Shown here in pieces: positions 1 to 63,393 of a stretch of 64,000 bases of DNA. The stretch covers positions 90,683,971 through 90,747,970 of the forward strand of contig NC_085843.1 in NCBI RefSeq assembly GCF_035594765.1, in the 5' to 3' direction. This stretch comes from Anolis carolinensis. Lineage: Eukaryota. How positions within the stretch are numbered: the stretch's first letter is position 1; each line of letters opens with the position of its first letter. The notes beneath the pieces are model-generated. The model was not told the origin of the DNA, did not search any database, and saw only the letters and a list, made by a program, of their open reading frames with translations. A program made the position numbers and the translations under genes.

Positions 1-940
1 AAGGTGTATACTTTATACCTATTGAATACAACCTATAGATGTATTGCTAGCAGTTAATAATCCCAAGTACAGGAGATGTTTCCTTGTATTTTGCACCCCA
101 TGAAGTCTATCACATTGTATTGCCATCTTTTATATGGAAAACAGTGATTATAATAAATTCTAAGCTTTTCAAATTTTAATCAGCATGGTGGATCTTGCTT
201 TTTATTTTATCTTGTGAACAGGAGCTGAAATAAGTAAGTGAAAGATTATAACAGCACAGGCCCAAATCCAATTGTTAGTCCCACATGGAGTAAATCTATT
301 GGGTTGATGACTCAGCCCATTGATTCAGCTCTAATCTAGTTAGGACTAGCAATTGAATTTGGATCATATAATACTCATATGATTCATGACTAACAAAACA
401 ATCGAATATAATACTGAGAAACTGGGATGGCAAATCTAATTGAACATACCTTTTAAGTTTCTGTTTTTCTTTGCTACTTCAGGGTCACAGTATCCAGCAA
501 TCAGAATGTCTGTTGAGTCACTATTTATGGATGAAGGGGAGGTATTATTCCTGAAACATTCCTCAAGACTTTCTTAATAAAAATAAAAGGTTTGCTTAAG
601 AAAATTGTCATGATTCATCACTGTTGATATAGCCCACTGAATTTCATTAGGTTTATCATGCATGATACTAACATTACATTATTTAATAGCTGAATTTTTA
701 CTAACTACACTCATTTAGTTGTTAACTATAGAATTTCTGGTACCAAACTATTTTTCTTGAGTATCTAATCCAAAATTCCAACATACTTGTGTGATAAAAT
801 CTGTGGTAGACAGTAATTGGAAAAATGCCAGGCTACGTGGATAACTACTCTCTTTTATAGCATTGGCAGTAACAGCACTTAGATCTCTGGAATAGTCATT
901 GTAAGGTATTGTAAAATTGTTTTGACTGTAGTAAAAGACT

Positions 941-3687: not shown

Positions 3688-3895
3688 CATCCTGTTTGCC
3701 AGTTAGTGTATGCATTAGCAATTCATATTGCCTCTTTACATCCCATAGTTCTTCTTTCAGTCTGTGGTTTTCCTCATTCAGCTGATGACTGATCTCCCTT
3801 ATTCTCCTGGATTCACTCCTCAGCTCACAAATTTCTTCATGCAGGGCCTGCTCATAAGTGTCTACTGGACCATGGCAGTTGTGCATCCTGTTGAT
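3688..3895 (-). CDS. Coiled-coil gene, 208-nt exon (INRMHNCHGPVDTYEQALHEEICELRSESRRIREISHQLNEENHRLKEELWDVKRQYELLMHTLTGKQD)
   Basis: ttttcctcttgaaag|ATC AAC...GAT G|gtaaac; heptad pattern. Confidence 0.85.
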
Positions 3896-6800
3896 CTTTC
3901 AAGAGGAAAAATAGATTAAACTGTGTTTGAGCTCTATGTATACAGTATAATCCTTTGCTCTATGCATTGAATATCCACAGCTTCATTTACCCATGGTTGC
4001 CCCACCCCAATCCCACCAAGAGTCTCTGTGGGCCTCTCTAGGTCTTCCAGTGTGTTTCAGCCCTATGATTCTGGCAGAAATATAGCCAACTAGGTTTCAC
4101 AAATATCTATGGTTTCTGGTAGCCACAGAAGATCTTGGAACATATCCCCCCCATGAATCCAAGGGGGTTATTTCATAATGACTTGTAATTCTCAAGTTCA
4201 TTTAACTTAATGTTATATATACATATCCCGAGAAATACTATAAGCAAAATATAATGCAGAAACAAAAAGAGCTAGGTTAGGATGTTTTTTTCCCATGTGC
4301 CACTCTTCAAAAAGCAGAAAGTTAGTTACTTGCAATAGGGGCAGAGAGGCTTCAGTTTTATAGGATCTATTTTTTGAAAGCTATTTGATGTATAAGAGCT
4401 ACAGCTAAAAGACATACACTTTGGATAAAGGAATTTGGTGTCTCTGGGCACATTCTACTTCTAGGAGTTTATTTTCAGTATGAGAATCCATCTCACACAA
4501 AACCACACTCCTGGATTGCTACATGACTTCTTCAGCAAATATATTTAGGAGAGCGAAGTGATTTAGTTGTGAAATAATTGGAGCCGAAACCAATCCATAA
4601 GGAGACTCCAATCAATCTGCCTACCAATGCACAGCATAGTTTATTCATTACTGTTTAAGACTGTGCAATTAACAAAAGTGTGCTAAAGGTGCCTACAATT
4701 ATTAATTGAAAATATATACAGGTGGTAAAAACACAAGATATATATATGTGTGTGTGTGTGTGTGTGTATAAAAATGTTGTTCCACCATATTATTTGGTGA
4801 ATTTTACGTATGACTGAATCAGTTTTACTCCCTGTAACTCCAATAGGAAAAGAACAGGTTTAAAATCATAATGTAGAGGATATTAAAGATGAATTGTCCA
4901 CTTCCCCTTAAAAGATGGCATACCTTTTTCTTCAACATAAGATTTTCTTCAGTGCAATTTGCTAATTGTTGTAAATATTCAGTTTTTAACAGAGCCATTT
5001 CATTCTTCAGTTGTGAAATTTCTTCATTTGCCTTTGCTAGCTGTAAGACAGCTGTTTTGTTGGCTTTGTGAAGGTTGCTGATCTGGCCTTTAAGATTCAC
5101 TAGACATCAAGATACAAGTACACATAAAAGTGATCCAGCCAGATGTGAATATATTTAAGACCTGGTTTACTCAAAACTTCAATCCTATGTTTCATTCTCC
5201 TCTAAGAAAACATTGTATTATGCAAAAAATATAATAAACAATTGATAAAATTGTGTTGCATTTTTTTCTTCCTGTTGCAATATAATGGAGTTCAAAATGC
5301 TCAGGTTGCAGCCAAATATGCTTAAGTGACAAAGAGTCACTTAAATTGAGGAGCTTTATCTCCAGTTTAGTAGTATACTTAAGCTTGCAAAACTGAAGAC
5401 TTTAATGTCAGTATTAGTATTTTTAGAATCAGGATAATATTAAGAACAACATTAAAGAATGAAAAGCACACCTTGCATTAACTCTAGCACAAGTCAATAC
5501 ACACTCTAATGAAAATAAAAATTGGTGAATGTCGAATAAAGAAACAAAGCCTTCATACCAATAAATTGCTGCAGGATGATAGGAGAATTGCATTCAGATA
5601 TCAGTAGACTGTCGGTGGATTCTTCTTTGTTAACATTTTCAGCCTACAATATGAATTCATTGGAATTTATTTTGTTGAAAAACCAAATGTAAATATTTTT
5701 CCTTACTTTTTATTGAACTGATTTATTTTTTTTAATTTTCTTTCTTACTCTGTTCTTATGTTCAAAGAAGGATACCTTATTTATTTGTATTATATGACGC
5801 TTAATAGTCCAGCTAAGTGCAACAGCTCATTCACTGGGCTATGTTTATTCTTAAAGCAAACTATTGCCATCTGCCATAAACTAATGTACAACCTAAGATT
5901 ATCCATTTCAGAAGGAATTCAGTTTACTTGATTTGCACTCCAGCTTCCAGAAAAAGAATAGGTGCAGGTTCATCGGTCTTTCCCAGTCCTACTATCAGAG
6001 ATTGAAGCTCTACTCTTCTACATGTTCGGACCCCTGAGCTATTACGCTATGAAGGTGGAGAAAATTGAAACATGCATTCTGTTTTTCATATTGTGAATGC
6101 AATCCTCAGAGCAGCAGACACTCTTGAATGAATTGTTCTATACTGCCATAACCTTATCTTTAGATATCACAAAGCAGAGATCTTTAAAGCACTGGTCATT
6201 CAAGCCTTTATGTGAACTATATCTCTCACAATCCATCACCATTGACTAAGCTGGCTAGGCCCAATGGAAGTTACAAACCACAGCTTTTGTGAAACTACTG
6301 TAGGAAGAAATTATGACTTCAGGGGAGAAATTATGACTTCAGGCTCACTCGTGCCTTAAGTCATAATTTCTCCTTTAGTAGTTACACAAAAGCTATGTCT
6401 CAGTGGCAACATAAATGGAAAGACCTCTATATTATTTCAATGAGCACCCTTAACAGTTCTTCTGCTGCACAATCGGTTCACTCTGCTGCACAGAAACAGA
6501 CTCTGTTTCTTACATTGTTATTAAAAGCATATCATATCTATAATAAGAGGAAATTATTATACAGTAGAGTCTCACTTATCCAACACTTGCTTATCCAACA
6601 TTCTGGATTATCCAACGTATTTTTGTAGTCAATGTTTTCAATACATTGTGATATTTTGGTGCTAAATTCGTAAATACAGTAATTACAACATAGCATTACT
6701 GTGTATTGAACTACTTTTTCTGTCAAATTTGTTGTATAACATGATGTTTTGATGCTTAATTTGTAAAATCATAACCTAATTTGATGTTTAATAGGCTTTT

Positions 6801-8429
6801 CCTTAATCTCTCCTTATTATCCAACATATTCGCTTATCCAACGTTCTGCCGGCCCGTTTATGTTGGATAAGTGAGACTCTACTGTACTTTTAAAGCATTT
6901 TACCTTGCTGTTCTGTTTGCTACTGTCAGTAAGATTCAGACTCTGTTCCTTGAAGAGAAGTTGGCCTTTGCTCTGAAGATTCTTCATGTCTGTCCTTTCC
7001 CATTTGTTTTCAACTGGACATTTTTGCTGAAATTTAGACTGTACAAGCAAGTCTCTCGTCTTTGTTGGTTTACAAACATAAATAGATAAACATGTCAGTT
7101 TATATTCAAGTATTTACTCTTCAATTTGACTATTAAACAAGGGCTGTTGCATTAGCATATATGGTGTTTGCTTTTTCTATTTATAAGTCAGACAGTCTTT
7201 AAAATTGATACTGGGCATTTGAACAATATAATGTATCATCTTTACACTAAAACTATTTATATGCTCTTAATTTATTGCAGCTCTCAAAGCAGTCTAAAGA
7301 CCTAACAGTTGTAGTACCACTATAATTAAATTAATATAGGAATATTTCACAACATTGAGATATACAGGACTGGATATTTGTGTATGTTCTCATCCCACAT
7401 TTATATATGTGTTTATGCTTATATATGTGTTTGAATGCATATATATGGGGAAGAGCAGGAAGGGTAACAGAAAAACCAAATAGGAAAAAAATAAGAGGTT
7501 CTCATGTCTTGTTTGCATGGGCCAAGCAGAATATGCTGATGCACATTTTTTTCCTTTTTGAATTGACCTTTTATGGTCAATAAAGAAATATTTCCATTGG
7601 GAAAAATGAAATGGAAATAAAACAGTAATAAATATTGCTACTTCCACCACCACCACTACTACTACTATATGCAGTTCCTTGGAAGTGTGATAGGATGGAC
7701 CCAGGTATATTCTCACAACACAGTTGTAGAAGTGCTCTAGTTTTATGAGAAATTCAACAACTGGAAGAACTGCAACATTAAATCCATGTACAATATTACA
7801 TAAAGGCCCAGCACCCACCAAAGCTATTATGTAGAACCCGGGTTGTTGAATTTATAGAATGATAATGTGCACAATGGTAAAATAAATTGCTGTGCTCACA
7901 TTAGTGTAGGACAGGTTCTAAATCTAAACTATTATGGTTGCAACCCAAGTGGCTTTTCTAATAAACAGTAATGCCTATAGTTTGGATCAGGGGTCCCCAA
8001 ACTAAGGCCCGGGGGCCGAATGCGGCCCTCCAAGGTCATTTACCTGGCCCCCGCCCTCAGTTTTATAATATATTTTTATATCATTTTAATAATATATTGT
8101 ATTTACATATAATATTGATAATAATATTATAATGTTATAAAATATAATATTAATACCATATAATAATATTAATTATATGTTATATATTACATATAATATT
8201 ACAGTATAGTGCAGGGGTCCCCAAACTAAGGCCCAGAGGCCGAATGCGGTCCTCCAAGGTCATTTACCTGGCCCCCGCCCTCAGTTTTATAATATAATAT
8301 TTTATATCATTTTAATAATATATATTGTATATACATATAATATTGATAATAATATTATGTTATACAATATATTAATAATAATACCATATTACAATATAGT
8401 GGTATCGTTCAATATATATAATATATATA

Positions 8430-8463
<34 letters not shown>

Positions 8464-11400
8464 TACTAATATTGTGCTATGCTAATAATATAATATATTG
8501 TATGTACATACAGCTGCTCTGAGTCCCCTTCAGGGTGAGAAGGGTGGGATATAAATGTAATAAATAAATGTAGTAAATGAATAAATATATAATTTTAGAC
8601 TTAGGCTCGCCCAAAGTCTGAAATGACTTGAAGGCACACAACAACAACAACAATCCTAATTCACTTGACTATCTCATTGGCCAGAAGCAGGCCCACCCTT
8701 CCCATTGAAATCCTGATAGGTTTATGCTGGTTACAATTGTTTTCATTTTTAAATATTGTATTGTTCTTTCATTGTTGTTTTGCACTACAAATAAGACATG
8801 TGCAGTGTGCATAGGAATTTGTCCGGTTTTTTTTTTTTCCAAATGATAATTCGGCCCCTCCACAGTCTGAAGGATTGTGGACCAGCCTTCTGCTTTAAAA
8901 GTTTGAGGACCCCTGGTGTGGATAGTAAGATTTTTTTTCTGATATTAAAAAGGAGAAAATTTGCCCTTCAAATCATAATACTATCTCAGTAAACCATCCC
9001 TAGGTTGTTTTTTTTTTTTAGAATGAAGAGCCCAAATGCAGAACTAAGAAATTCCTACAAAGAGTCCTTCAAAAGAATGGAATGAGTGGATGTAGATGTG
9101 ACAAGACCTTGCATCCCAAGAACTCAGGCTGCTTTAGACTAATCTGAAAGAGCCCTTTGTGACAGTTTTTAGTATCACAGTAATAAGATAATAAATAATT
9201 GTGGTTAGATTGATCGTTCTAAATTAAACACAGCAAATTAATCTTTAAAATTACAGCAAAGAATACACATCAAATATACTGATATAAAGCTTGCATTCCT
9301 TCCCACCTCATTACAGTCTTTAAATTGCTGGAGTAGGGTGGTGCTTGCATATCCTCTCCCCTTTGAAATTACAGGCACTACAATGGCCATAGGGACTCTT
9401 CAAAGTTCAATTAATATTACACACACACAAATATAATCAGAAACAAGTAAGAGTGCTGGAGGATTGAAGTCTTGTCTTCAAAATGAGAAAACACTCATTT
9501 TTCTCGTGCTGTGGCGCAGGCTGGAAAGCAAGCCAGCTGCAACAAATCACTCTGACCAAGAGGTCATGAGTTCGAGGCCAGCCCGTGCCTGCGTCTTGTC
9601 TCTGTCTCTGTTCTATGTTATGGCATTGAATGTTTGCCTTTATGCGTGCAATGTGATCCGCCCTGAGTCCCCTTCGGTGTGAGAAGGGCGGAATATAAAT
9701 GCTGTAAATAAATAAATAAAACACTAGGTAAAAGAAAAATTCTTAAAATACTGAATGCCCATGTATATTGAGAATAAGAATTGAAAGCCTGTAGCTTTGA
9801 AAAATCAAACTGTTCACCGTATTTAAAAAAAATTCAAGAGACAATCAAGTATTTGAAATCTGTTTCCTGTAATAGTGTTCCCTCACTTATCACAGGGGTT
9901 ACATTCCAGGACCACCCACAAAAAGTGAAAATCTGCAAAGTAGGAATGCTATATTTATGTTGTTTGCAAGCAGCATTTCTGTCCTCTCCTCGCCTCTCAA
10001 GCACACACATGTGTGCTCCCGCCGCTGCCATTGCCTTGTGAGGTGAAAACAAAGCTGTTTCAGTCTCCTTTTCTCTCCCTTCCTTCGGCTTCTCCTTAGG
10101 AAGGAAGTAGAAAGAAGGATTTACAATATTTATGATTTATACTATTATTTTAGTGTTTATTAAAAAAACACAAAAGAGTGAATCCACGAAAAGCAAACCA
10201 CAAAGTAGTGAGGGAACACTGTACTTTCTTTTAGCTTAATCATAAGTACTTCCTATTAATACACGGAAAGTATTATCTTAAAATCAGCTATTAGCATAAA
10301 GCTTTTGTTCTTGGTACACTCATTGTTCTGCCCAGAAAGTATAAAAAACACCCTTCCCTTAAAAAAAAATCATTTTCTATTTTACCTCCATTGTTTTATT
10401 CATTTGGTCAGTATTCATATTTCTACCTTCAGCATCCCCAGCAGCTTTTCTATAATGGCACTGCCTTTCATTTACATCCAGAAAGAGCTTTTGTGTTGAC
10501 AATTTAACCACCACGGAGCCACGGAGGCAGGGCTTTGTCAAAAACACAGCTTGAACAGCTGCTGCAGAAGTCTGGTATAACACAACAAACACAAAGGAGA
10601 CAAGTGGGTCTCTTTCCAGCAAAATACAGCCAGCTCCCTGTGTTTCTTGTTTATTGTATGAATCAGACTTGTTAAAAAGCATCTTTCTGTAATGAAGATG
10701 ATCTGTAAAAATAATCAGTTTGGGTAACAACTTTATCACTTACTGTTTTGTATGTTTCATGTAATTTCTTTTTAACGACTTCTGCTGACATTTTGTAGAT
10801 ATTGGAAAAGAAGTCATACATATATTCATTAATATTTGGCCCTCTGCCATACACACACATTAGATTCTCTTCCTTCATTGCATGATCAAGCAGCAGTATA
10901 TATTGGAAAGCCAGCAAGAAACACGGCAACTATATAGTCAGCCTTATTGTCATTATTATTATTTATGTTTATTTATACCCTGCTTTATCTCCTCCGAAGG
11001 GGACTCAAAGTGGCTTAACATAAAAGCATCAGCATAACCATTTAACATATACAAATATATGAACATTAAAACAGGATTAAATATAAACCTGATTAAAAAT
11101 TCCCAAATAAAAACCAGTAAAACATTCAAAGTTAAAAACCACAGGACCCCCTTGAATTGATCTTAAACATCTTCATCTTTAAAAGCCTGCTTGAATAAAA
11201 AGATTTTAGCTTGCTGCTCAAAGGACAGTGGGGGGGGGGGGGGAATCATTCTGGCTTCCCTGGGCAGGTAGTTCCAGAGTCGAGGGGCAACCACCAAGAA
11301 GGCTCGCTTTCTCTTTCCCACCAACCGAGCTTAAGGTGGAGGTGGGACCAAGAGAAGGGCTTCTTCTGAAGATCTCAAGGGCCCAGCAGCTTCATACCAG

Positions 11401-13032
11401 GGGATACGGTCAAAAGATAAATGAAAGTATTAGCGGTCTTACTCCCTCTATCCCTACTGCTTCTTACACAATTGATTTCATATTATTTATTTTATTTATT
11501 TATTTACAGCATTTATATTCCGCCCTTCTCACACCGAAGGGGACTCAGGGTGGATCACATTGCACATAAAGGCAAACATTCAATGCCATAACATAGAACA
11601 GAGACAAATGACCAAACAAGAGTTAAATTCTCTCCCCAGAGATTTTTGTCATTTTATTCACATTGTTTCATTGTGATTTCATATCTTTCTCTTCTGTTTA
11701 CTTGAACACATTCTAGAGAACTGTAATAATCAAGGCAGAATAAAGGGAAATAATAACCTTTTCCAAACAATTCAATTTATTATGTTATCATCTTTCTTGG
11801 TCTTAACTTTCAGTTTTGTATAACACTTTCAGATTATGATAGCTGCCAAAGCATCTGGAGATAGTCATAGCTGGACTGCTTTTCCTACCCAACTTCTATA
11901 CAAGAAAGGTTTGATATGTATCTGTTGTATCTGGTTTCTTCCCTAGTTTTATGGTCATTTATTTGATTATTATGAAAAGTCTTTCTATTAGAACCAGCCA
12001 TCTCAAAGGATCACTATGGATTTTTAACACAATGTAATTATTGTTTATGATGATTCTAAGATGCAGAATCATCATAACTGAATTTCAATATGTATGGTAA
12101 ACAATCCAAAAACACATAGTATATCTCACTTCACACCCCAACCAGCAAAAATGATGTTTTTTTAACCTTATGATGATTAACATGATGTTCCAAGTCAGCT
12201 AATGGTGAAGTATCATTATATAAGTTTTTAGGAGAAGTAGCTGATATCCAAGCCTGATCAATAAAACTTGAATCTTGATCAACAGCTGGAAAAAAAGATA
12301 GAGAAGAAAATTACACTGGTGAATCACTCAACAATTCCAACTAAACTTAAAAGTATCCTAGTTACCTGAACTCTGTGATTGATTAACTTGTATTCCAGCT
12401 TCCAGCAACTTTTCTGTTCTTGGGCATTGCAGTGCTATACACTCAGAAACATTCAGAGATTGCTTTGCATTTTGGGGTGTTGGTGATGCAAAGTGTTGTA
12501 TTGAGGGAACTGTTTTAAAATCTGCAATGTAAGTACTACCTTGATTATGCTTTAAAACTTGGGGAAATATACTGAAAACAACATCATCTCCAATTATATC
12601 ATCTACAGTGTATTGGTTATCGTCCATTGATGGTTTATATCCTCCATCTGTACATTCTTGAGGGATACCTGAAAATTGTGCCAGTGTGTCCTGTGATCGG
12701 CTAGATCTCAAAACTTTCCACTCAAGAGGAAGAATTGATTGATTCAAAGTTAAAGATAATATATTATCAGCAGAGCCTCCAAAACGACATCTTGAGTGCT
12801 TCAAAGAGTCTTGATCTTGGCTTATTTGTGAATCCCAGTCTATTATCTGTACAAGTGAATGTCCCATTAATGGTTCTTCTCCAAAGTAAGAATGTGCATT
12901 TTCCATTGTAGTAGTACCATCATGGACATTTTGTGTGTGTACTGGAGAAGCCAACAGGTCATTACTTTCTAGATGAACATCCTTCAGTAGAAGATCAGAA
13001 TTTTCTCTGCTTACATTTAATGACGAATTCAT
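3688..13032 (-). CDS. Uncharacterised multi-exon protein with C-terminal coiled coil (>=524 aa; last exon unresolved)
   Basis: Phase-compatible GT-AG exons: 12366-13032, 10744-10784, 10386-10571, (9307-9360), 6904-7059, 5559-5643, 4924-5099, 3688-3895. The ATG has A at -3 and an upstream in-frame TGA. The last two exons show heptad-like L/I/E/K/Q periodicity. Confidence 0.75.
4924..5099 (-). CDS. Coiled-coil gene, 176-nt exon (VNLKGQISNLHKANKTAVLQLAKANEEISQLKNEMALLKTEYLQQLANCTEENLMLKKK)
   Basis: tgtctag|TG AAT...AAA AAG|gtatgc; heptad pattern. Confidence 0.85.
5559..5643 (-). CDS. Coiled-coil gene, 85-nt exon (AENVNKEESTDSLLISECNSPIILQQFI)
   Basis: attgtag|GCT GAA...ATT G|gtatga; phase 0 in, phase 1 out, joining the next exon in frame. 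Confidence 0.75.
6562..6884 (-). mobile_element. Tc1/mariner MITE, same family as 3169-3482, reverse orientation
   Basis: Same TIRs, TA TSD; sits 19 nt inside the intron after the donor at 6904. Confidence 0.9.
6904..7059 (-). CDS. Coiled-coil gene, 156-nt exon (TRDLLVQSKFQQK...SSKQNSK)
   Basis: Branch-like ctgac, T-rich tract, aaag|ACG AGA...AGC AAG|gtaaaa; phase 0/0. Confidence 0.65.
7988..8915 (+). mobile_element. Non-autonomous hAT (Charlie-like) with internally duplicated 5' end
   Basis: TIR caggggtccccaaact / agtttgaggacccctg; 8-bp TSD gtttggat/gtgtggat; a second 5' terminus at 8212; internal (TA)n and SINE-tail sequence. Confidence 0.88.
9307..9360 (-). CDS. Coiled-coil gene, possible 54-nt exon (GRGYASTTLLQQFKDCNE)
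   Basis: gtaatttcaaag|GGG AGA...AAT GAG|gtggga; symmetric phase 0/0, weak splice sites. Confidence 0.35.
9505..9720 (+). mobile_element. tRNA-derived SINE with L2-like tail
   Basis: B-box-like gagttcgaggcc; tail gccctgagtccccttcgg...gaagggcggaatataaat(aaat)n. The tail recurs many times in the window. Confidence 0.75.
9873..10221 (+). mobile_element. Tigger-like MITE
   Basis: TIR agtgttccctcactt / gtgagggaacactg followed by TA; a related right end lies at ~24300-24480. Confidence 0.7.
10386..10571 (-). CDS. Coiled-coil gene, 186-nt exon (TSAAAVQAVF...QMNKTME)
   Basis: tttgttgtgttataccag|ACT TCT...ATG GAG|gtaaaa; phase 0/0; an alternative upstream acceptor lies at 10702. Confidence 0.65.
10744..10784 (-). 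CDS. Coiled-coil gene, 41-nt exon (AEVVKKKLHETYKT)
   Basis: aatgtcag|CA GAA...AAA ACA|gtaagt; phase 1 in, phase 0 out. Confidence 0.55.
10950..11410 (-). mobile_element. L2 LINE 3' fragment
   Basis: Reverse-complement L2-type tail (ccgaaggggactcaaagtggctt) and 3' body. Confidence 0.6.
12366..13032 (-). CDS. Coiled-coil gene, first coding exon (MNSSLNVSRENSDLLLKD...QVNQSQSS)
   Basis: 222-codon open frame in AT-rich DNA. Acceptor ttttttttactgttgttag at 13064/13065, start ATCATCATGA, donor TCAG|gtaact (phase 1). Confidence 0.8.
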
Positions 13033-13134
13033 GATGATTGTCAAATTTCCTCAACTTGTTAATCCTAACAACAGTAAAAAAAATAACATTCATGTTAAAA
13101 GACAGGATCATTCAATAAATCCAATGAAACTGAA

Positions 13135-28667: not shown

Positions 28668-28779
28668 AACTGAAGGAGAAGAAAGAACAGATGGAAGAAG
28701 AGGAGGAGGAGGATAAAGAAGAGGAGCAAAAAGAAGAAGGAAGAGGAGGAAAAGGAGAAGGGGAAGAGGAGGAGGAAGA

Positions 28780-29420
28780 AATACAAAACACACGAAGCCC
28801 CCTCGTGGCTGCCTTGCTCGTCTGGCCCACGCAGCCTCTAGCTCTGAGCGACACCTGTATCCTTGGCTGCGTGTGCCCAGGCCTGAGTCCCACGGGCACC
28901 ACGCCGCGAATGAGAAGGGTTTGCTGCGGTTCTTCCCCCTCCTTCCCTCCCTCCCTCCCTCCTTCCCTGGCCCAGGGGCTCTTCTAGGGGCGCGCCTGCC
29001 TGCTCTCTTCCTGCCTACCTGCTTGGCCCTTTTCTCCGAAGCCAGCGGCTCTTTCTGGGGCCAGGGAAAGGGAGGCCCGGGTGGCTTCCTCTCCCGGGGA
29101 CGCCCGGCTCAAGCGCCGCCTCGCTGCCCGGGGAAAGGAGGGCCGTGGCGGGCGGCGGGCGCCTTCTCTCCTCCCAGCCAGGCTCGCCCGCTCCTCCTCC
29201 TCCTCCTCCTCCTCCTCGCTCAGGAAGGCAGAGGCAGCCGGGCTCTGGAGGGAAAGAGGAGGACAAAGAGGGGCGGCTTTGCCGAAGGACAAAGGCACTC
29301 CTGGGGCCCCTTCCCTTCCCTTCCAGGCTGGAAAAACATCTCGTTCTTCTCCTCGTCAGTGGTTTGGCCTTGAGGTGCTCAGGCAAGACAAGGGTCCCCC
29401 TTCCACACTGGCCCTGCAGC
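28780..29420. promoter_or_regulatory. CpG island, probable promoter and non-coding first exon of the coiled-coil gene
   Basis: Abrupt GC- and CpG-rich block (cgcgcc, ggcgggcggcggg, GC boxes, (CCT)n run) in AT-rich surroundings. A minus-strand donor CAG|gtaggc lies at 29019/29018. Confidence 0.65.
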
Positions 29421-29882
29421 CCCAACCTTTGGGCTCCTATCCCTCACTTGCATAGAGACAGTGTAGAGTACGGTGTGTTCTCAAAGGATTTGGAATAACT
29501 GGGTGGCTGTGAGTTTTCTGTACGGCCATGTTCCAGAAGCATTCTCTCCTTTTGTATACAAAACTCCTGTGGGATCCAGGAGTTGTCTGATCTTTTCTTT
29601 GTATTGTTCCATTTCCATGATTAGTGTAGCATTCCCCTTGTCTGCAGAGGGAAATTGTGATTTCTGGATCTGAGTTGAGGACTTTGATGGCTTGTCTTTC
29701 TTTCCTTGTTATTTTTTCCTTTCTAAGGATCCTGTTTCCTCTCTTTCCACCTCCTCCAAGGTGAACTCGACCACCTAAACTGGGCTCCACAGGCCAATGG
29801 ATACTCCACCACAGACATCAGATGAGCTGCAAGGTCAAGAACAAGCCTTGAGAGTAAAGACAAAGATCCACCCAGAGGAAAA

Positions 29883-30353
29883 GTGTTCTTACCATACATC
29901 AAAGGAACCATTGACCACATAGGGAAGCTGATGAAGAAACACAACCTACACACTATCTACAGACCCACTAAGAAAATCCAACAAATGATACGTTTAGCAA
30001 ATGACAAGAGGGATCCTCCCACCTCTGCAGGAGTCTACTGTATACCATGCAGCTGTGGACAAGTCTACATAGGAACCACCAAAGGCAGCACTGCCCAAAC
30101 ACGAATCAAGGAAAATGAAAGGCACTGCAGAATAACTCAACCAGAGAAGTCAGCCATAGCAGAGCTCTTGATGAACCAACCTGGACACAGCATATTGTTG
30201 GAGAACACAGAAATGCTGGATCACTCTAACAATCACCACGCCAGACTACACAGAGAAGCCACTGAAATCCACAAGCATGTGGACAATTTCAACAGAAAGA
30301 AGAAAACCATGAAAATGAACAAAATCTGGCTACTAGTATTTAAAAAACTCTGA
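29883..30353 (+). pseudogene. Penelope-type GIY-YIG endonuclease coding remnant
   Basis: GVY-x-I-x-C-x-C-x3-YIG motif with conserved R, H, E and N positions. Confidence 0.88.
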
Positions 30354-37105: not shown

Positions 37106-39825
37106 CAGTGATTCCCAAAGTGGGCGTTACCGCCCCCTGGTAGGTGCTGCAGCAATCCAGGGGAGCAGTGATGGCCACAGGTGCATTTGGGGGCAATGAA
37201 TAATTGTAAGGGGGCAGTGAAAGCATAAAAGAAAGAAGATTTAGAAAAATTGATTTATGTATTCCACTCATAATGCTTAATTTTTCTTTGAACAACGTAC
37301 TGGATGTTGGCTCGGTCCCACATATTCCCTCACTTGCATTGAGATATGTGCAATCGCACACTGCTACTGTTCACGCGGTGCCACTGAATTGCTGTTCCAA
37401 AACACGTGAGCACTACGAGCATTGCTGCAGGCAACTGCCACTCATGGGATTGGTCGATCGCAAGGCCAAAGCCTGGAATGGCAGGGACAGTACTGGCTAC
37501 TGGCAGTACTACCAGCAGATTTTGGAGCACACTATGAATCAGGAGATTTCCCATAATTATTATGGGAAAATTACGGCGTAATATAACTTTAAGTTAGATC
37601 ATTGTGATATTGTGACAAGTTAAAGTTAACTAACAAATAGTGTGACTATAATTGGTGAGTATGTTATTTATTTTGTAATAATTACATGCGCTTTACAATT
37701 AATAATATCATGTTTATTTATTTCATTAGTATTTATTTTAGTTTGTTTTTTACAAAAATATTTCAAAAATTACAAAAAAAAATAATTAAAAATACCTCCA
37801 TAAAATTTTTAATTTTTCTACAGATAATAACGGTTCAACCAAAGAAAAAATGTAGACAATATAATATCGAATATTTGAAATATGGCTTTGTTGAGTCGCC
37901 TGTAAACAATACATTACCAATGTGGCTGATTTGCCAGAAAGTTTTATCAAACGAAGCTATGAAGCCTTTCAAACTACAAGAACATTTGACTAAAATTCAT
38001 GGTGATAAAAAAGATAGGGATTTATCTTATTTTCGAACACTAAAAGAAAAAATTATCAAACGACTGACAATGGCAACCGCAACCACACAAGATGGCGATG
38101 GCTTGCTTGCTTCTTACAAGATTTCGTTAATGATTGCCAAATCGGGAAAACGCCATACTATTGGTGAAGAACTAATTATATCGGCGATAGTGAAGTAATA
38201 CGTACTGTGCTACACAAGCCAGCATCTGATATTATCAAGAAAATTTCATTGAGCAATAATACAGTGCAAAGAAGAACTGATGAAATGGCTCAAGATGTTG
38301 AAGATTCATTGTGTGGCTATTTAAAAACATCTCAGTTTTCTATTCAACTTGATGAGTCAACTTTGTTAGGAAATGAAGCTTTACTTTTAGCATTTGTGCG
38401 GTTCACAAAGGAAGAACAAATTCGTCAAGAATTAATATTTGCTAAATATTTGCAAACTTTTACTAAAGGAGAATCAATATTTCATGCATTGGATGAGTTT
38501 TTTTTTAAAAGAAAAAGAAATACTTCTGAGTAATATCTTATCAGTAGCCACAGATGGTGCTCCAGCGATAGTAGGGTGCTACAGGGGTTTTCTTGCATAT
38601 TTAAAAAAGGAGGTGTTGAATGCATTCATAGTACACTGTATATGTACTAGCAACATCTAGTTGCCAAAAATTTAAGTGCACACCTACATAATTCATTACT
38701 ATATGAAATTAAAGCTATCAACACAATCAGAAGCAAATCATTGAATGACAGATTATTTAAACAGCTTTGTATTGAAAACGATGAAGAATTTAATCATTTG
38801 CTGCTTTATACAGAATTCTGTTGGTTGTGAAAGGGTGCCTGTTTAGATAGGTTTTATAATTTTTTAAACTCAGTTCTTGAAAGGTAAAAATGCTTTACGA
38901 TCCAATTTAATTCAATCCAAAAGTGACACCGCTTACTTGACCAACTTGCTTCAAAAATTTAATGAAAGCAATCTTCAGCTTCAAGGTGATAAACTGAATT
39001 TAATAAAAACAAAATCTTTTATTTCTGCATTTGTGACAAAACTTCTTATGTACAAATGAAATTTTGGAATAGGGGAATTCAGCCAGTTCCCAAATTTATC
39101 AGGAGCAGAAAAAAAAAAAAAGATGAAGACATACTTTCTTATTGTGAGCACTTGGATGCTCTCCATTCAGATTTTAATCAATGATTTCATGATATTTTGA
39201 AAATGAACATACCTGATTGGATTTTGAATCCTTTTTCAAGTGCAAACACGGAAGAATCGCCACAGTTACAAGAAGAACTGATGGAAGTAACTGATGAATT
39301 GAAATTTAAATTCAAAAGCAGCTACCAACAATTCTGTCTGCAAAAGGAGATCCCTAAGGCTTATCCAGAAATATGGGCTGTAATTCAAAAGTTCTTAATT
39401 GTATTTCCTTCAGCATATTTAGTGGAACGTGGATTCAGTTAACCAAAAAAAAAAAAAAGAGAAACCAATTGCAAATAGTCAATCCCGGTTATTTAAGATT
39501 ACTGCTGACGAAAATAGAGCCAAGGATTACTAAATTAGTAGCAGCATACCAGGTTCATCCTTCTCATTAAGATGATTTTGAATGTTTTAATTTTTTTATA
39601 TTACCTTTCTATTCTGAGTTCAAAAAATAGTTTCATAATTTCAAATTTTAATGTTTCTAATTTACACCTTTATTTACTATATTTTACAAAAAAGGTAGAA
39701 ACATTAACACATATATCTGTTTAATTGCTATTAATTTTTTTTTAAAAAAATTAATTTTCACGGGGTGCTGAGTAATATTTTTTCTGGAAAGGGGGCGGTA
39801 GACCAAAAAAGTTTGGTAACCACTG
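37106..39825 (+). mobile_element. Full-length degenerate hAT transposon (Charlie/Buster group)
   Basis: TIR cagtgattcccaaa / tttggtaaccactg, subterminal ccgcccc / ggggcgg, 8-bp TSD tactagac/gactagac with central TA. Confidence 0.95.
37821..39570 (+). pseudogene. hAT (Buster/ZBED8-like) transposase pseudogene
   Basis: BED-finger remnant RQYNIEYLKYGF...LICQKVLSNEAMKP.KLQEHL.K.H; catalytic FSIQLDEST, ATDGAPA, HC and YLVERGFS motifs; multiple stops and frameshifts. Confidence 0.93.

Positions 39826-49116: not shown

Positions 49117-63393
<14,277 letters not shown>

Follow-up and report, generated by a model that had tools for sequence, protein, structure and literature searches.

The 64,000-nucleotide stretch of the Anolis carolinensis genome analysed here (on contig NC_085843.1, hereafter the window) carries seven of the ten coding exons of LOC103278344, a real and intact gene on the minus strand, whose product is predicted to run from a disordered N-terminus through two coiled coils and a Ser-rich linker to a single CAP-Gly domain at the C-terminus. 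To judge from its sequence, the protein belongs to a CAP-Gly group of its own, apart from CLIP1-4, dynactin, CEP350, KIF13B, CYLD, TBCB and TBCE, which is found from corals to lizards, has an altered (LxGR, GKHDG) and nearly invariant groove, and appears to be absent by loss from mammals, birds and teleosts. The CAP-Gly domain, overlooked in the preliminary description, points the protein toward the microtubule cytoskeleton, which would fit the germline or centrosomal role suggested there.

The remaining three coding exons lie past the left edge of the window, about 1, 9 and 17 kb away. Each of the nine introns has GT-AG ends and matching phases, and the spliced frame of 662 codons plus a stop yields a product that is letter for letter RefSeq XP_008105565.2 (A. 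carolinensis isoform X1, uncharacterised). A scan of the minus strand for open exons bounded by AG and GT recovered the chain proposed in the preliminary description, whose six exons between 13064 and 3688 (exons 1 to 6 below) do have canonical GT and AG sites and matching phases. That this chain goes far beyond chance is borne out by the A. sagrei protein: a tBLASTn search of the window plus 100 kb to its left and 60 kb to its right finds it tiled by ten exons at 78-96% identity per exon. The start ATG is at 13032, and the same exon has an in-frame stop just upstream of it. The genome contains a single match to the large exon, and its use as a 221-aa query against longer proteins gave 5 matches among 476 candidates, each of them an uncharacterised lizard protein of 611-663 aa that carries a CAP-Gly domain. 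The gene had been called unrecognised, which agrees with the RefSeq label "uncharacterised", but a RefSeq model exists and UniRef speaks of a CAP-Gly domain-containing protein. The features, with negative coordinates counted leftwards from the window, are:

12366..13064, minus strand: exon 1, coding, ATG at 13032; residues 1-222, predicted disordered; identical to RefSeq X1
Near residue 143 of LOC103278344: conserved motif (V/I)DD(V/I)(V/I)GDE of exon 1
12167..12285, minus strand: exon 2, coding; residues 223-262
10386..10682, minus strand: alternative first exon, coding part; takes the place of residues 1-262 in RefSeq isoform X2 (499 aa); A. sagrei and Pogona have comparable short isoforms
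6904..7059, minus strand: exon 3, coding; residues 263-314
5559..5643, minus strand: exon 4, coding; residues 315-342; coiled coil 1 begins
4924..5099, minus strand: exon 5, coding; residues 343-401; coiled coil 1
3688..3895, minus strand: exon 6, coding; residues 402-470; coiled coil 2
450..572, minus strand: exon 7, coding; residues 471-511; conserved Ser-rich motif; absent from the preliminary description
-1081..-1240 (left of the window), minus strand: exon 8, coding; from the A. sagrei alignment and the spliced model
-9159..-9395 (contig positions about 90674575-90674811), minus strand: exon 9, coding; CAP-Gly domain, together with exon 10
-17328..-17385 (contig positions about 90666585-90666642), minus strand: exon 10, coding; CAP-Gly domain, together with exon 9
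28751..29500, minus strand: GC-rich patch (GC 0.63-0.67, CpG o/e 0.48-0.57) with a strong donor at 29018
49120..60900, minus strand: 3' exons of GK, with an FGGY_C match at 53055-53177 and the last long coding exon near 49,150

Our reading of the splicing draws on sequence signals, cross-species conservation and RefSeq isoform models. The earlier count of at least 524 codons could not be reproduced and falls short of the true frame of 662; chains that include 10571-10386 as an internal exon give 518 or 532. The RefSeq models of A. carolinensis, A. sagrei and Pogona use that exon (10386..10682) as an alternative first exon instead. Some A. sagrei and Podarcis raffonei models skip the CAP-Gly exon of 237 nt in frame. 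The frame would also stay open with a first exon of 50 nt (13064-13015) followed by a 73-nt intron, but this variant was rejected: it would lose residues that are conserved in other lizards from the ATG on, and it occurs in none of the RefSeq isoforms viewed. The GC-rich patch is a candidate promoter with a putative non-coding first exon. The large exon is present in 20 of 24 sequencing-run rows, which are uninformative on expression as no row is recorded as RNA.

On the contig, TAB3 (plus strand) is followed by LOC103278344 (minus), GK (minus) and a TASL-like ORF (plus, at +111.4 kb), TAB3 and TASL being labels that we presume from their sequences. TAB3, with its large exon at -47.5 kb and its zinc finger at -23.2 kb, lies tail to tail with LOC103278344, and GK, whose first exon is at +80.9 kb, lies upstream on the same strand. 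LOC103278344 had been placed immediately downstream of GK; strand and order were right, but about 36 kb separate its first coding exon from the last long coding exon of GK, which has a short final exon besides. As had also been proposed, a gene of no named function thus sits between GK and TAB3 and is kin to neither. In human, we take the gene order to be TASL-GK-TAB3. The linkage to GK looks old: a sturgeon gene model (P0060) fuses a GK exon to a coiled-coil exon of the LOC103278344 family, and the Podarcis raffonei family protein P0184 is filed as "glycerol kinase isoform X5", both of which suggest it.

The N-terminal 342 residues are rich in serine, glutamine and aspartate, as described earlier (S 12.9%, Q 8.8%, D 7.9%). 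The heptad-rich segment attributed to the C-terminus was partly right: the predicted long helices 335-408 and 412-469 have hydrophobic residues at 68% and 71% of their a/d positions (best of seven phases), but the coiled coil (335-469) is central, with four exons and the CAP-Gly domain after it. AlphaFold2, with a 78-row alignment, gave a mean pLDDT of 59.7, and 375 of 662 residues fell below 50; in the two helices and in the domain at about 577-662 the block pLDDT was mostly above 90, and outside the helices and the CAP-Gly domain the model has low confidence. Conservation within the family is likewise highest in the two helices and the CAP-Gly domain. The gene had been suspected of evolving fast, which holds for most disordered stretches (33-47% identical to Pogona), but not for the coiled coil (78%) or the CAP-Gly domain (87%). 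An acidic-hydrophobic motif near residue 143 is kept in 35 of the 40 jawed-vertebrate rows of at least 600 aa, and a Ser-rich motif near residue 483 in 38 of 51 jawed rows. CAP_GLY is the sole Pfam family over its cut-off. Coiled-coil matches to TPR, SNaCT14, Rab11-FIP3 and DUF7491 were weak and all below cut-off; for DUF7491 (PF24319, cut-off 30 bits), the best score was 27.6 bits, in a lamprey protein, with none in LOC103278344 and no match at the locus. An Atlas search for clusters with the coiled coil and without CAP-Gly reached at best 0.86 with only 105 shared features (RABGAP1-like), which is chance level.

The CAP_GLY match (PF01302) spans residues 601-657 and scores 61.4 bits against a curated cut-off of 26.5. 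The predicted model of the domain has the SH3-like beta fold and compares with TBCB at Z 12.4 (rmsd 2.0, 81 residues), CLIP-170 at Z 12.0, p150Glued at Z 11.8 and CYLD CAP-Gly3 at Z 10.7; Foldseek and VIA place it among the solved CAP-Gly domains. Residues 574-662 have a net charge of +6, with values of +3 to +8 in 48 of 51 jawed-vertebrate rows (a net charge, not a surface map).

As far as the accessible parts of the sources go, CAP-Gly domains typically read the EEY/F tails of tyrosinated alpha-tubulin or EB via a GKNDG loop (PMC13406575; bioRxiv 10.1101/2022.08.09.503328). By its residues, LOC103278344 departs from such canonical readers at three or four places of the groove. The loop reads GKHDG, with His for Asn in 76 of 78 family rows and K or R before this His in 45 of 51 jawed and all 27 other rows. 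Gly occupies the site of the Phe found in CLIP-170, p150Glued, KIF13B and TBCB, and Tyr replaces the groove Trp (each in 72/78 rows); the position of p150Glued's groove Arg holds N, S or A, and the Phe matching the GIFV strand of p150Glued is kept in 73/78. With the p150Glued numbering and residue roles that we assume here, F52, W57 and F88 become G614, Y619 and F651, of which one is lost, one conservative and one kept. The groove is nearly invariant from coral to lizard, with L612 in 74 of 78 rows, G614 in 72, R615 in 74, H632 in 76 and F654 in 70. GKHDG also occurs in two domains of this genome that we take to be TBCB-like and CLIP3-like, so that His for Asn need not disable the groove.

That the family is separate from the known CAP-Gly genes is supported by several comparisons. 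In a tree of 94 rows and 82 columns, which leaves out named CYLD, TBCB, TBCE and KIF13B domains and whose deep forks are open, the long jawed-vertebrate form makes up a single clade (28 rows, 99/93) whose subgroups are taxon-true, and the family is split from 17 outgroup rows (95/87), with two long-branch outsiders inside it. Among the best 150 proteins listed, single-domain proteins of the family type (97/150) score 72-155 bits against the family profile, versus 32-61 bits for multi-domain CAP-Gly proteins (43/150), the profile having been built partly from the same single-domain group that it scores. The A. carolinensis genes that we take to be DCTN1, CLIP1-4, CEP350, KIF13B, TBCB, TBCE and CYLD lie elsewhere in the genome (20 stretches read). 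Orthology to CEP350, KIF13B or DCTN1 was not found by size, by motor or dynactin domains, or in the tree (drawn without KIF13B). Family members carry the database labels CLIP2, CEP350-like, CLIP4, myosin-like and glycerol kinase isoform, which could be taken to mean that LOC103278344 is a diverged copy or a mis-joined model of a known CAP-Gly gene. Because the usual CAP-Gly genes lie elsewhere, however, the CLIP2, CEP350-like, CLIP4 and myosin-like names are probably automatic mislabels, and the profile scores and the split in the tree, despite its two outsiders, speak against a copy or mis-join as well; we consider this reading extremely unlikely and largely refuted.

At E<=0.001, a HMMER search of 1.84 billion representatives returned 1165 proteins, and the best 150 of these were listed. 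Named members among the matches listed come from frogs, caecilians, chimaera, sharks, sturgeon, gar, bowfin, a crinoid, amphioxus and a clam; further named members come from lampreys and Montipora corals, and in the Atlas a rotifer-dominated cluster joins the family at 0.93. Named searches with the coiled coil (28 matches among 127 candidates) and the CAP-Gly domain (48 among 94) found lizards, turtles, frogs, caecilians, coelacanth, reedfish, sturgeons, paddlefish and cartilaginous fish. None of the 28 and none of the 48 is from a mammal, in keeping with the loss from mammals that had been suggested, and none is from a bird, crocodilian, snake, gecko, salamander, lungfish or teleost. The suggestion of a gene retained by sauropsids finds no support: the family extends from corals to lizards, and neither birds nor crocodilians gave a match. 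Teleosts and coelacanth have a short paralogue of about 260-330 aa, which was not found in the A. carolinensis genome; it has the same CAP-Gly type, ends in MAWE/AWE after a short coiled coil and groups inside the family, but is without the two conserved coiled coils (profile score at most 23 bits).

It is conceivable that the gene was not truly lost in mammals, birds and teleosts, and that its orthologues there are unannotated, short or too diverged. The named searches were word-limited and covered 364-1161 aa only, and since the CAP-Gly search recovered 10 of 17 known family clusters, single taxon gaps mean little. Three lizard-like fragments without species name (P0051, P0064 and P0144, 74-84% identical to lizards) could come from geckos, varanids or snakes, so that losses within squamates (snakes, geckos) are weakly supported. 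Moreover, according to the accessible parts of Hara et al. (2018, PMC5901865), many "elusive genes" that had been thought missing were later found in birds or mammals. However, the CAP-Gly search did recover sharks and sturgeons, at 69-76% CAP-Gly identity, so that mammals, birds and teleosts, which are heavily sampled, should show matches, and all 14 vertebrate-type long-form representatives checked in the length-free HMMER search, which carry no species name, have their closest relatives in frogs, lizards or sturgeon. That three heavily sampled groups are missing altogether is telling, and we think it very unlikely that orthologues were overlooked. To our knowledge, the human CAP-Gly gene set contains no such gene. 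Parietal eye, cone oil droplets, colour change and egg type were considered as correlates of the loss pattern and rejected, since none fits turtles, teleosts and invertebrates together.

With confidence a little better than even, we lean towards LOC103278344 being a dimeric linker that would bind the acidic tails of alpha-tubulin or EB proteins and tether cargo to microtubules. Its coiled coils would dimerise and pair two CAP-Gly domains, giving avidity, and the basic domain would grip the acidic tails via the altered groove. The conserved coiled-coil face and the acidic-hydrophobic and Ser-rich motifs may hold cargo and regulators, while alternative first exons and skipping of the CAP-Gly exon could tune the linker. 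A microtubule/EB linker with a remodelled groove is favoured by the basic domain, by the K/R and the last groove Phe, which are kept, and by the presence of GKHDG elsewhere in the genome.

The near-invariance of the altered groove from coral to lizard suggests one specific ligand, which might instead be a dedicated non-tubulin partner (a C-terminal aromatic tail, a zinc knuckle or a proline-rich motif), so that LOC103278344 would be a scaffold protein (at centrosomes, basal bodies or membranes, for instance). Structures of CAP-Gly domains bound to SLAIN2 and to a zinc knuckle of CLIP-170 have been solved, and CYLD CAP-Gly3 binds NEMO on a conserved surface, according to the accessible text of PMC8511506. 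The basic charge and the K/R-H-D-G loop are kept, however, and no candidate partner was found; such a partner is in our estimate rather unlikely. Alternatively, the domain might bind ubiquitin as CYLD CAP-Gly3 does, and in jawed vertebrates at least the protein would then be a ubiquitin receptor with coiled coils. CYLD CAP-Gly3 is the best solved match of the family profile (39.9 bits, nearly tied with CLIPR-59 at 39.6, a difference of 0.3 bits), the only solved match of the chimaera protein at E<=1e-6 (3/3 rows), and ranks 2-3 in Foldseek, but its structural Z (10.7) is below those of TBCB, CLIP-170 and p150Glued. Residue 591, which would correspond to CYLD Leu475, is Leu in 43 of 51 jawed rows but in only 4 of 27 non-gnathostome rows; E625, the presumed counterpart of CYLD Glu507, is Glu in 46 of 51, whereas the Val487 position (T605) is mostly Thr (32/51, with V, L or I in 12). 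As far as the accessible text of PMC8511506 goes, Leu475 is required for binding to ubiquitin, and the majority of other CAP-Gly domains carry Arg or Pro there, yet KIF13B is hydrophobic at this position and does not bind ubiquitin, so that a hydrophobic residue there is not enough. The same text places Phe545, in a C-terminal helix of the ubiquitin- and NEMO-binding CYLD domain, in the ubiquitin interface; the chain of LOC103278344 stops at about CYLD 544 and misses this helix. We regard ubiquitin binding as distinctly unlikely. A predicted complex of the CAP-Gly domain with ubiquitin scored 0.01 twice, in runs without an alignment and with controls not folded, and carries no weight either way. 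A broader reading, also unlikely in our view, is that the family is an undescribed, ancient class of animal CAP-Gly proteins whose invariant, rebuilt groove would read a ligand other than the EEY tail of tubulin or EB, possibly ubiquitin, and which would have disappeared independently from mammals, archosaurs and teleosts, and perhaps also from snakes and geckos.

The putative microtubule linker can be compared with several known systems. With TBCB, its top structural match, it shares the GKHDG loop (this genome's TBCB-like exon) and presumably the architecture of a single C-terminal CAP-Gly domain behind a helical region. Unlike TBCB, it has no Pfam ubiquitin-like domain, is 662 aa long with a long disordered N-terminus and has lost the groove Phe; unlike TBCE, it has neither a ubiquitin-like domain nor LRRs by Pfam. 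CLIP-170/CLIP-115 and p150Glued (DCTN1) resemble it in joining a CAP-Gly domain, basic and structurally similar (Z 11.8-12.0), to a long coiled coil, but in LOC103278344 the order is reversed, with one CAP-Gly domain at the extreme C-terminus and no zinc knuckles, and the GKNDG and TxFA motifs of CLIP-170 and p150Glued read GKHDG and LxGR. CLIP1-4 carry zinc knuckles or ankyrin repeats alongside their two or three CAP-Gly domains, whereas LOC103278344 has one CAP-Gly domain and no other Pfam family over cut-off. CYLD CAP-Gly3 matches without gaps over the G-x-x-PG loop and the GxELE strand and shares the Leu at the ubiquitin-contacting position, but CYLD has a USP catalytic domain and three CAP-Gly domains, whereas LOC103278344 has no USP domain and one CAP-Gly, lacks the Phe545 helix and keeps K/R-H before DG. 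KIF13B and CEP350 also have a single CAP-Gly domain in the C-terminal part, and several family members are auto-labelled CEP350-like, but LOC103278344 has no motor domain, is far shorter than CEP350, and both genes are separate in the genome.

Counts of CAP-Gly proteins usually draw on human, fly and worm, and the set is regarded as small and well known. What seems new here is that a separate CAP-Gly family, ranging from corals to lizards and bearing a groove signature of its own, is recognised; already known are the gene model, which is in RefSeq, and the pattern of loss, as the "elusive genes" (469 in PMC5901865, in its accessible parts) are likewise old genes of vertebrates that reptiles have retained and that mammals and birds lack. 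The main text of that paper does not mention CAP-Gly, and a search of 12 of its 19 supplementary files for six terms gave no match; its lists could hold the gene under other identifiers. Our literature searches found no paper on LOC103278344 or its family; subscription journals and most supplements were outside their scope and may hold expression tables that include it. The family appears to be missing from mammals and, as regards its long form, from teleosts, so that the usual vertebrate models would not reveal it, and yet it has persisted since corals and bilaterians diverged, its non-standard groove staying nearly invariant. It lends itself to a natural test of the groove residues that a reader of tubulin tyrosination needs, and it is an instance of a cytoskeletal gene repeatedly lost from the conserved block TASL-GK-TAB3. 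If its groove did read ubiquitin, it would be the only ubiquitin-binding CAP-Gly protein besides CYLD. These ideas are testable at once in Xenopus, whose family member is LOC108708387.

Judging by its sequence, a GC-rich patch upstream of the CAP-Gly gene LOC103278344 is likely to comprise the promoter and a non-coding first exon of this gene. The patch, mobile elements and further CAP-Gly loci of this genome are as follows (window positions, negative ones lying to the left of the window; positions in Mb are those of contigs C4 and C6).

28751-29500: GC-rich patch, located 16 kb upstream of the LOC103278344 start codon and carrying a strong splice donor on the minus strand at 29018
901-1920: LINE-like piece, presumed transposon remnant
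29826-30353: GIY-YIG/Penelope-like ORF, presumed transposon remnant
37659-38533: hAT-like transposase piece, presumed transposon remnant
About -10,400 to -15,500 (stretches L002-L003): CpG-rich element, last intron of LOC103278344
G000:C4, about 77.68-77.70 Mb: CAP-Gly stretches L029 and L033
C4, 4.92 Mb: CAP-Gly stretches L032 and L034
C6, 10.72 Mb: CAP-Gly stretches L035 and L037

The CpG-rich element in the last intron contains overlapping minus-strand ORFs of 302, 411, 753 and 991 aa, and we take it to resemble a DIRS-type retrotransposon. A similar element lies inside TAB3, at -42.8 to -37.9 kb.

Among the further CAP-Gly loci is what we assume to be a second KIF13B-like CAP-Gly tail in this genome, with an apparent exon duplicate 27 kb away. 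The stretches listed (L029, L032, L033, L034, L035 and L037) presumably also include two more CYLD-like loci, in addition to the one on contig C11.

Most of the lizard proteins compared have in common a G-(I/T/M)-Q-V-N motif at residues about 213-218 (window about 12375-12400), a putative counterpart of the LC8/DYNLL-binding motif of nNOS, which it resembles.

The architecture of the family differs between lineages. Turtles, frogs, coelacanth and chimaera (P0191, P0201, P0022, P0024, P0030) have an additional likely coiled-coil segment N-terminal of coiled coil 1, whose counterpart in lizards is shorter and poorly predicted (helix 288-305, low pLDDT). Amphioxus and other invertebrate members (P0044, P0045, P0048) share a beta-rich N-terminal stretch that is absent from the vertebrate members; to us it is reminiscent of a CBM48/AMPK-beta carbohydrate-binding module, and a Pfam search with these N-termini gave zero matches at E<=0.01. 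Teleosts and coelacanth have a short unnamed CAP-Gly paralogue (P0087, P0090, P0092, P0095, P0099), wrongly labelled CLIP4 or TBCE in databases, and some of these proteins have a hydrophobic N-terminus.
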